From the NCBI GenBank assembly GCA_030606585.1, contig JAUWGD010000002.1:1-36792 (forward strand): 36,792 bases of DNA, written 5' to 3'. Continued below: a report on this DNA, generated by a model with database tools. The letters are not shown here. The DNA is from Dehalococcoidales bacterium (GTDB lineage Bacteria > Chloroflexota > Dehalococcoidia > Dehalococcoidales > RBG-16-60-22).

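Follow-up and report, generated by a model that had tools for sequence, protein, structure and literature searches.

Mosaic composition of the core operon

Identities to the window genes formed a mosaic for two members of the core operon, ACAD1 (6826-7989) and the FAD_binding_2 flavoprotein (10508-11905). Among the related loci compared, the flavoprotein was 98-99% identical in L020, L149 and L150, and 68-70% identical in L001, L005, L008, L018 and L021. For ACAD1, values of 69-72% were obtained in L005, L007, L020, L021 and L149, and 84-95% in the remaining loci. The adjoining genes kept 80-97% identity, and this pattern suggests two allele classes swapped by recombination within the operon.

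The DUF35/thiolase-like pair (5022-6716) was also found in two versions, with the Cys and the Glu-for-His change common to both. The thiolase-like motif reads YDLT in the Dehalococcoidales version and QDTD in that of other phyla and of L152, a locus from a related lineage (L143-L148, L152). The QDTD type was only 36-40% identical to the Dehalococcoidales version, while 56-69% identity was kept for ACAD2, M24 and the CoA-transferase between loci with differing versions. By these identities, the two versions of the pair were apparently exchanged, with the other three genes left in place.

A putative promoter, recognized by its sequence pattern (near-consensus TTGACA, 17-nt spacer, TAGAAT, extended TG), is located at 4911-4939 (+), 83 bp 5' of the DUF35 start, and is overlapped by an AT-rich palindrome at 4919-4934.

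Accessory genes and their neighbourhoods

In loci L002-L004, a minimal cluster was observed that joins a DUF35/thiolase-like gene pair of the YDLS type (53-54%) to an AthL-like Mo enzyme gene (a paralogue with 74% identity) and a gene for a 516-aa FAD_binding_2 protein. It is flanked by housekeeping genes, infB/rbfA/truB on one side and dapA/dapB/pnp on the other, and the set may represent a three-component unit. In the related locus L001 (6703-7176 and 12761-22643), an HbpS/GlcG-like gene is found where the window has trio 1, and AthL is followed first by an SDR gene, DctM and DctQ, next by a tandem array of four genes (about 284 aa, without Pfam match) and then by a B12-binding protein gene. 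The window itself encodes a DctP lipoprotein (35497-36690, -), whose lipobox is followed by a Pro/Ala/Glu-rich stretch of some 50 residues; no DctQ or DctM genes were found within it.

The genes for MMSDH and a 145-aa helical protein with a weak Ferritin_2 match form a two-gene unit (24921-26871, -). The unit is conserved across a variety of gene contexts, occurring in 58 of the 71 related loci (L063-L142, L151). The trio 2 FAD_binding_4 subunit adjoins this unit in 14 MMSDH loci, and URO-D-like genes share its locus in 10. An insertion between trio 2 and UbiD, confined to the closest relatives, encodes a chagasin-family peptidase-inhibitor lipoprotein (31793-32275, +).

A possible partner of the AH-like enzyme, and gene neighbourhoods in L152 and L153

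A 4Fe-4S ferredoxin-domain gene, truncated at the left edge of the window (1-125, -; protein start MKAMVIDINRCNGCYNCQIACKDEH...), lies downstream of the acetylene-hydratase-like (AH-like) enzyme and CocE, and its product may serve the former as a partner in electron transfer. This gene goes unmentioned in the sequence-only reading. In L152 (12010-21236), three FAD_binding_2 paralogues, an 88-aa ferredoxin, an AH-like Mo enzyme (65% identity to that of the window) and RidA are directly joined to the core.

In L153 (10001-18787), a 55% identical M24 homologue adjoins two aldehyde:ferredoxin oxidoreductases, a binding protein and an OYE flavoprotein, with no ACAD or thiolase genes beside it. This setting hints at an aldehyde or an acid as the possible product of M24.
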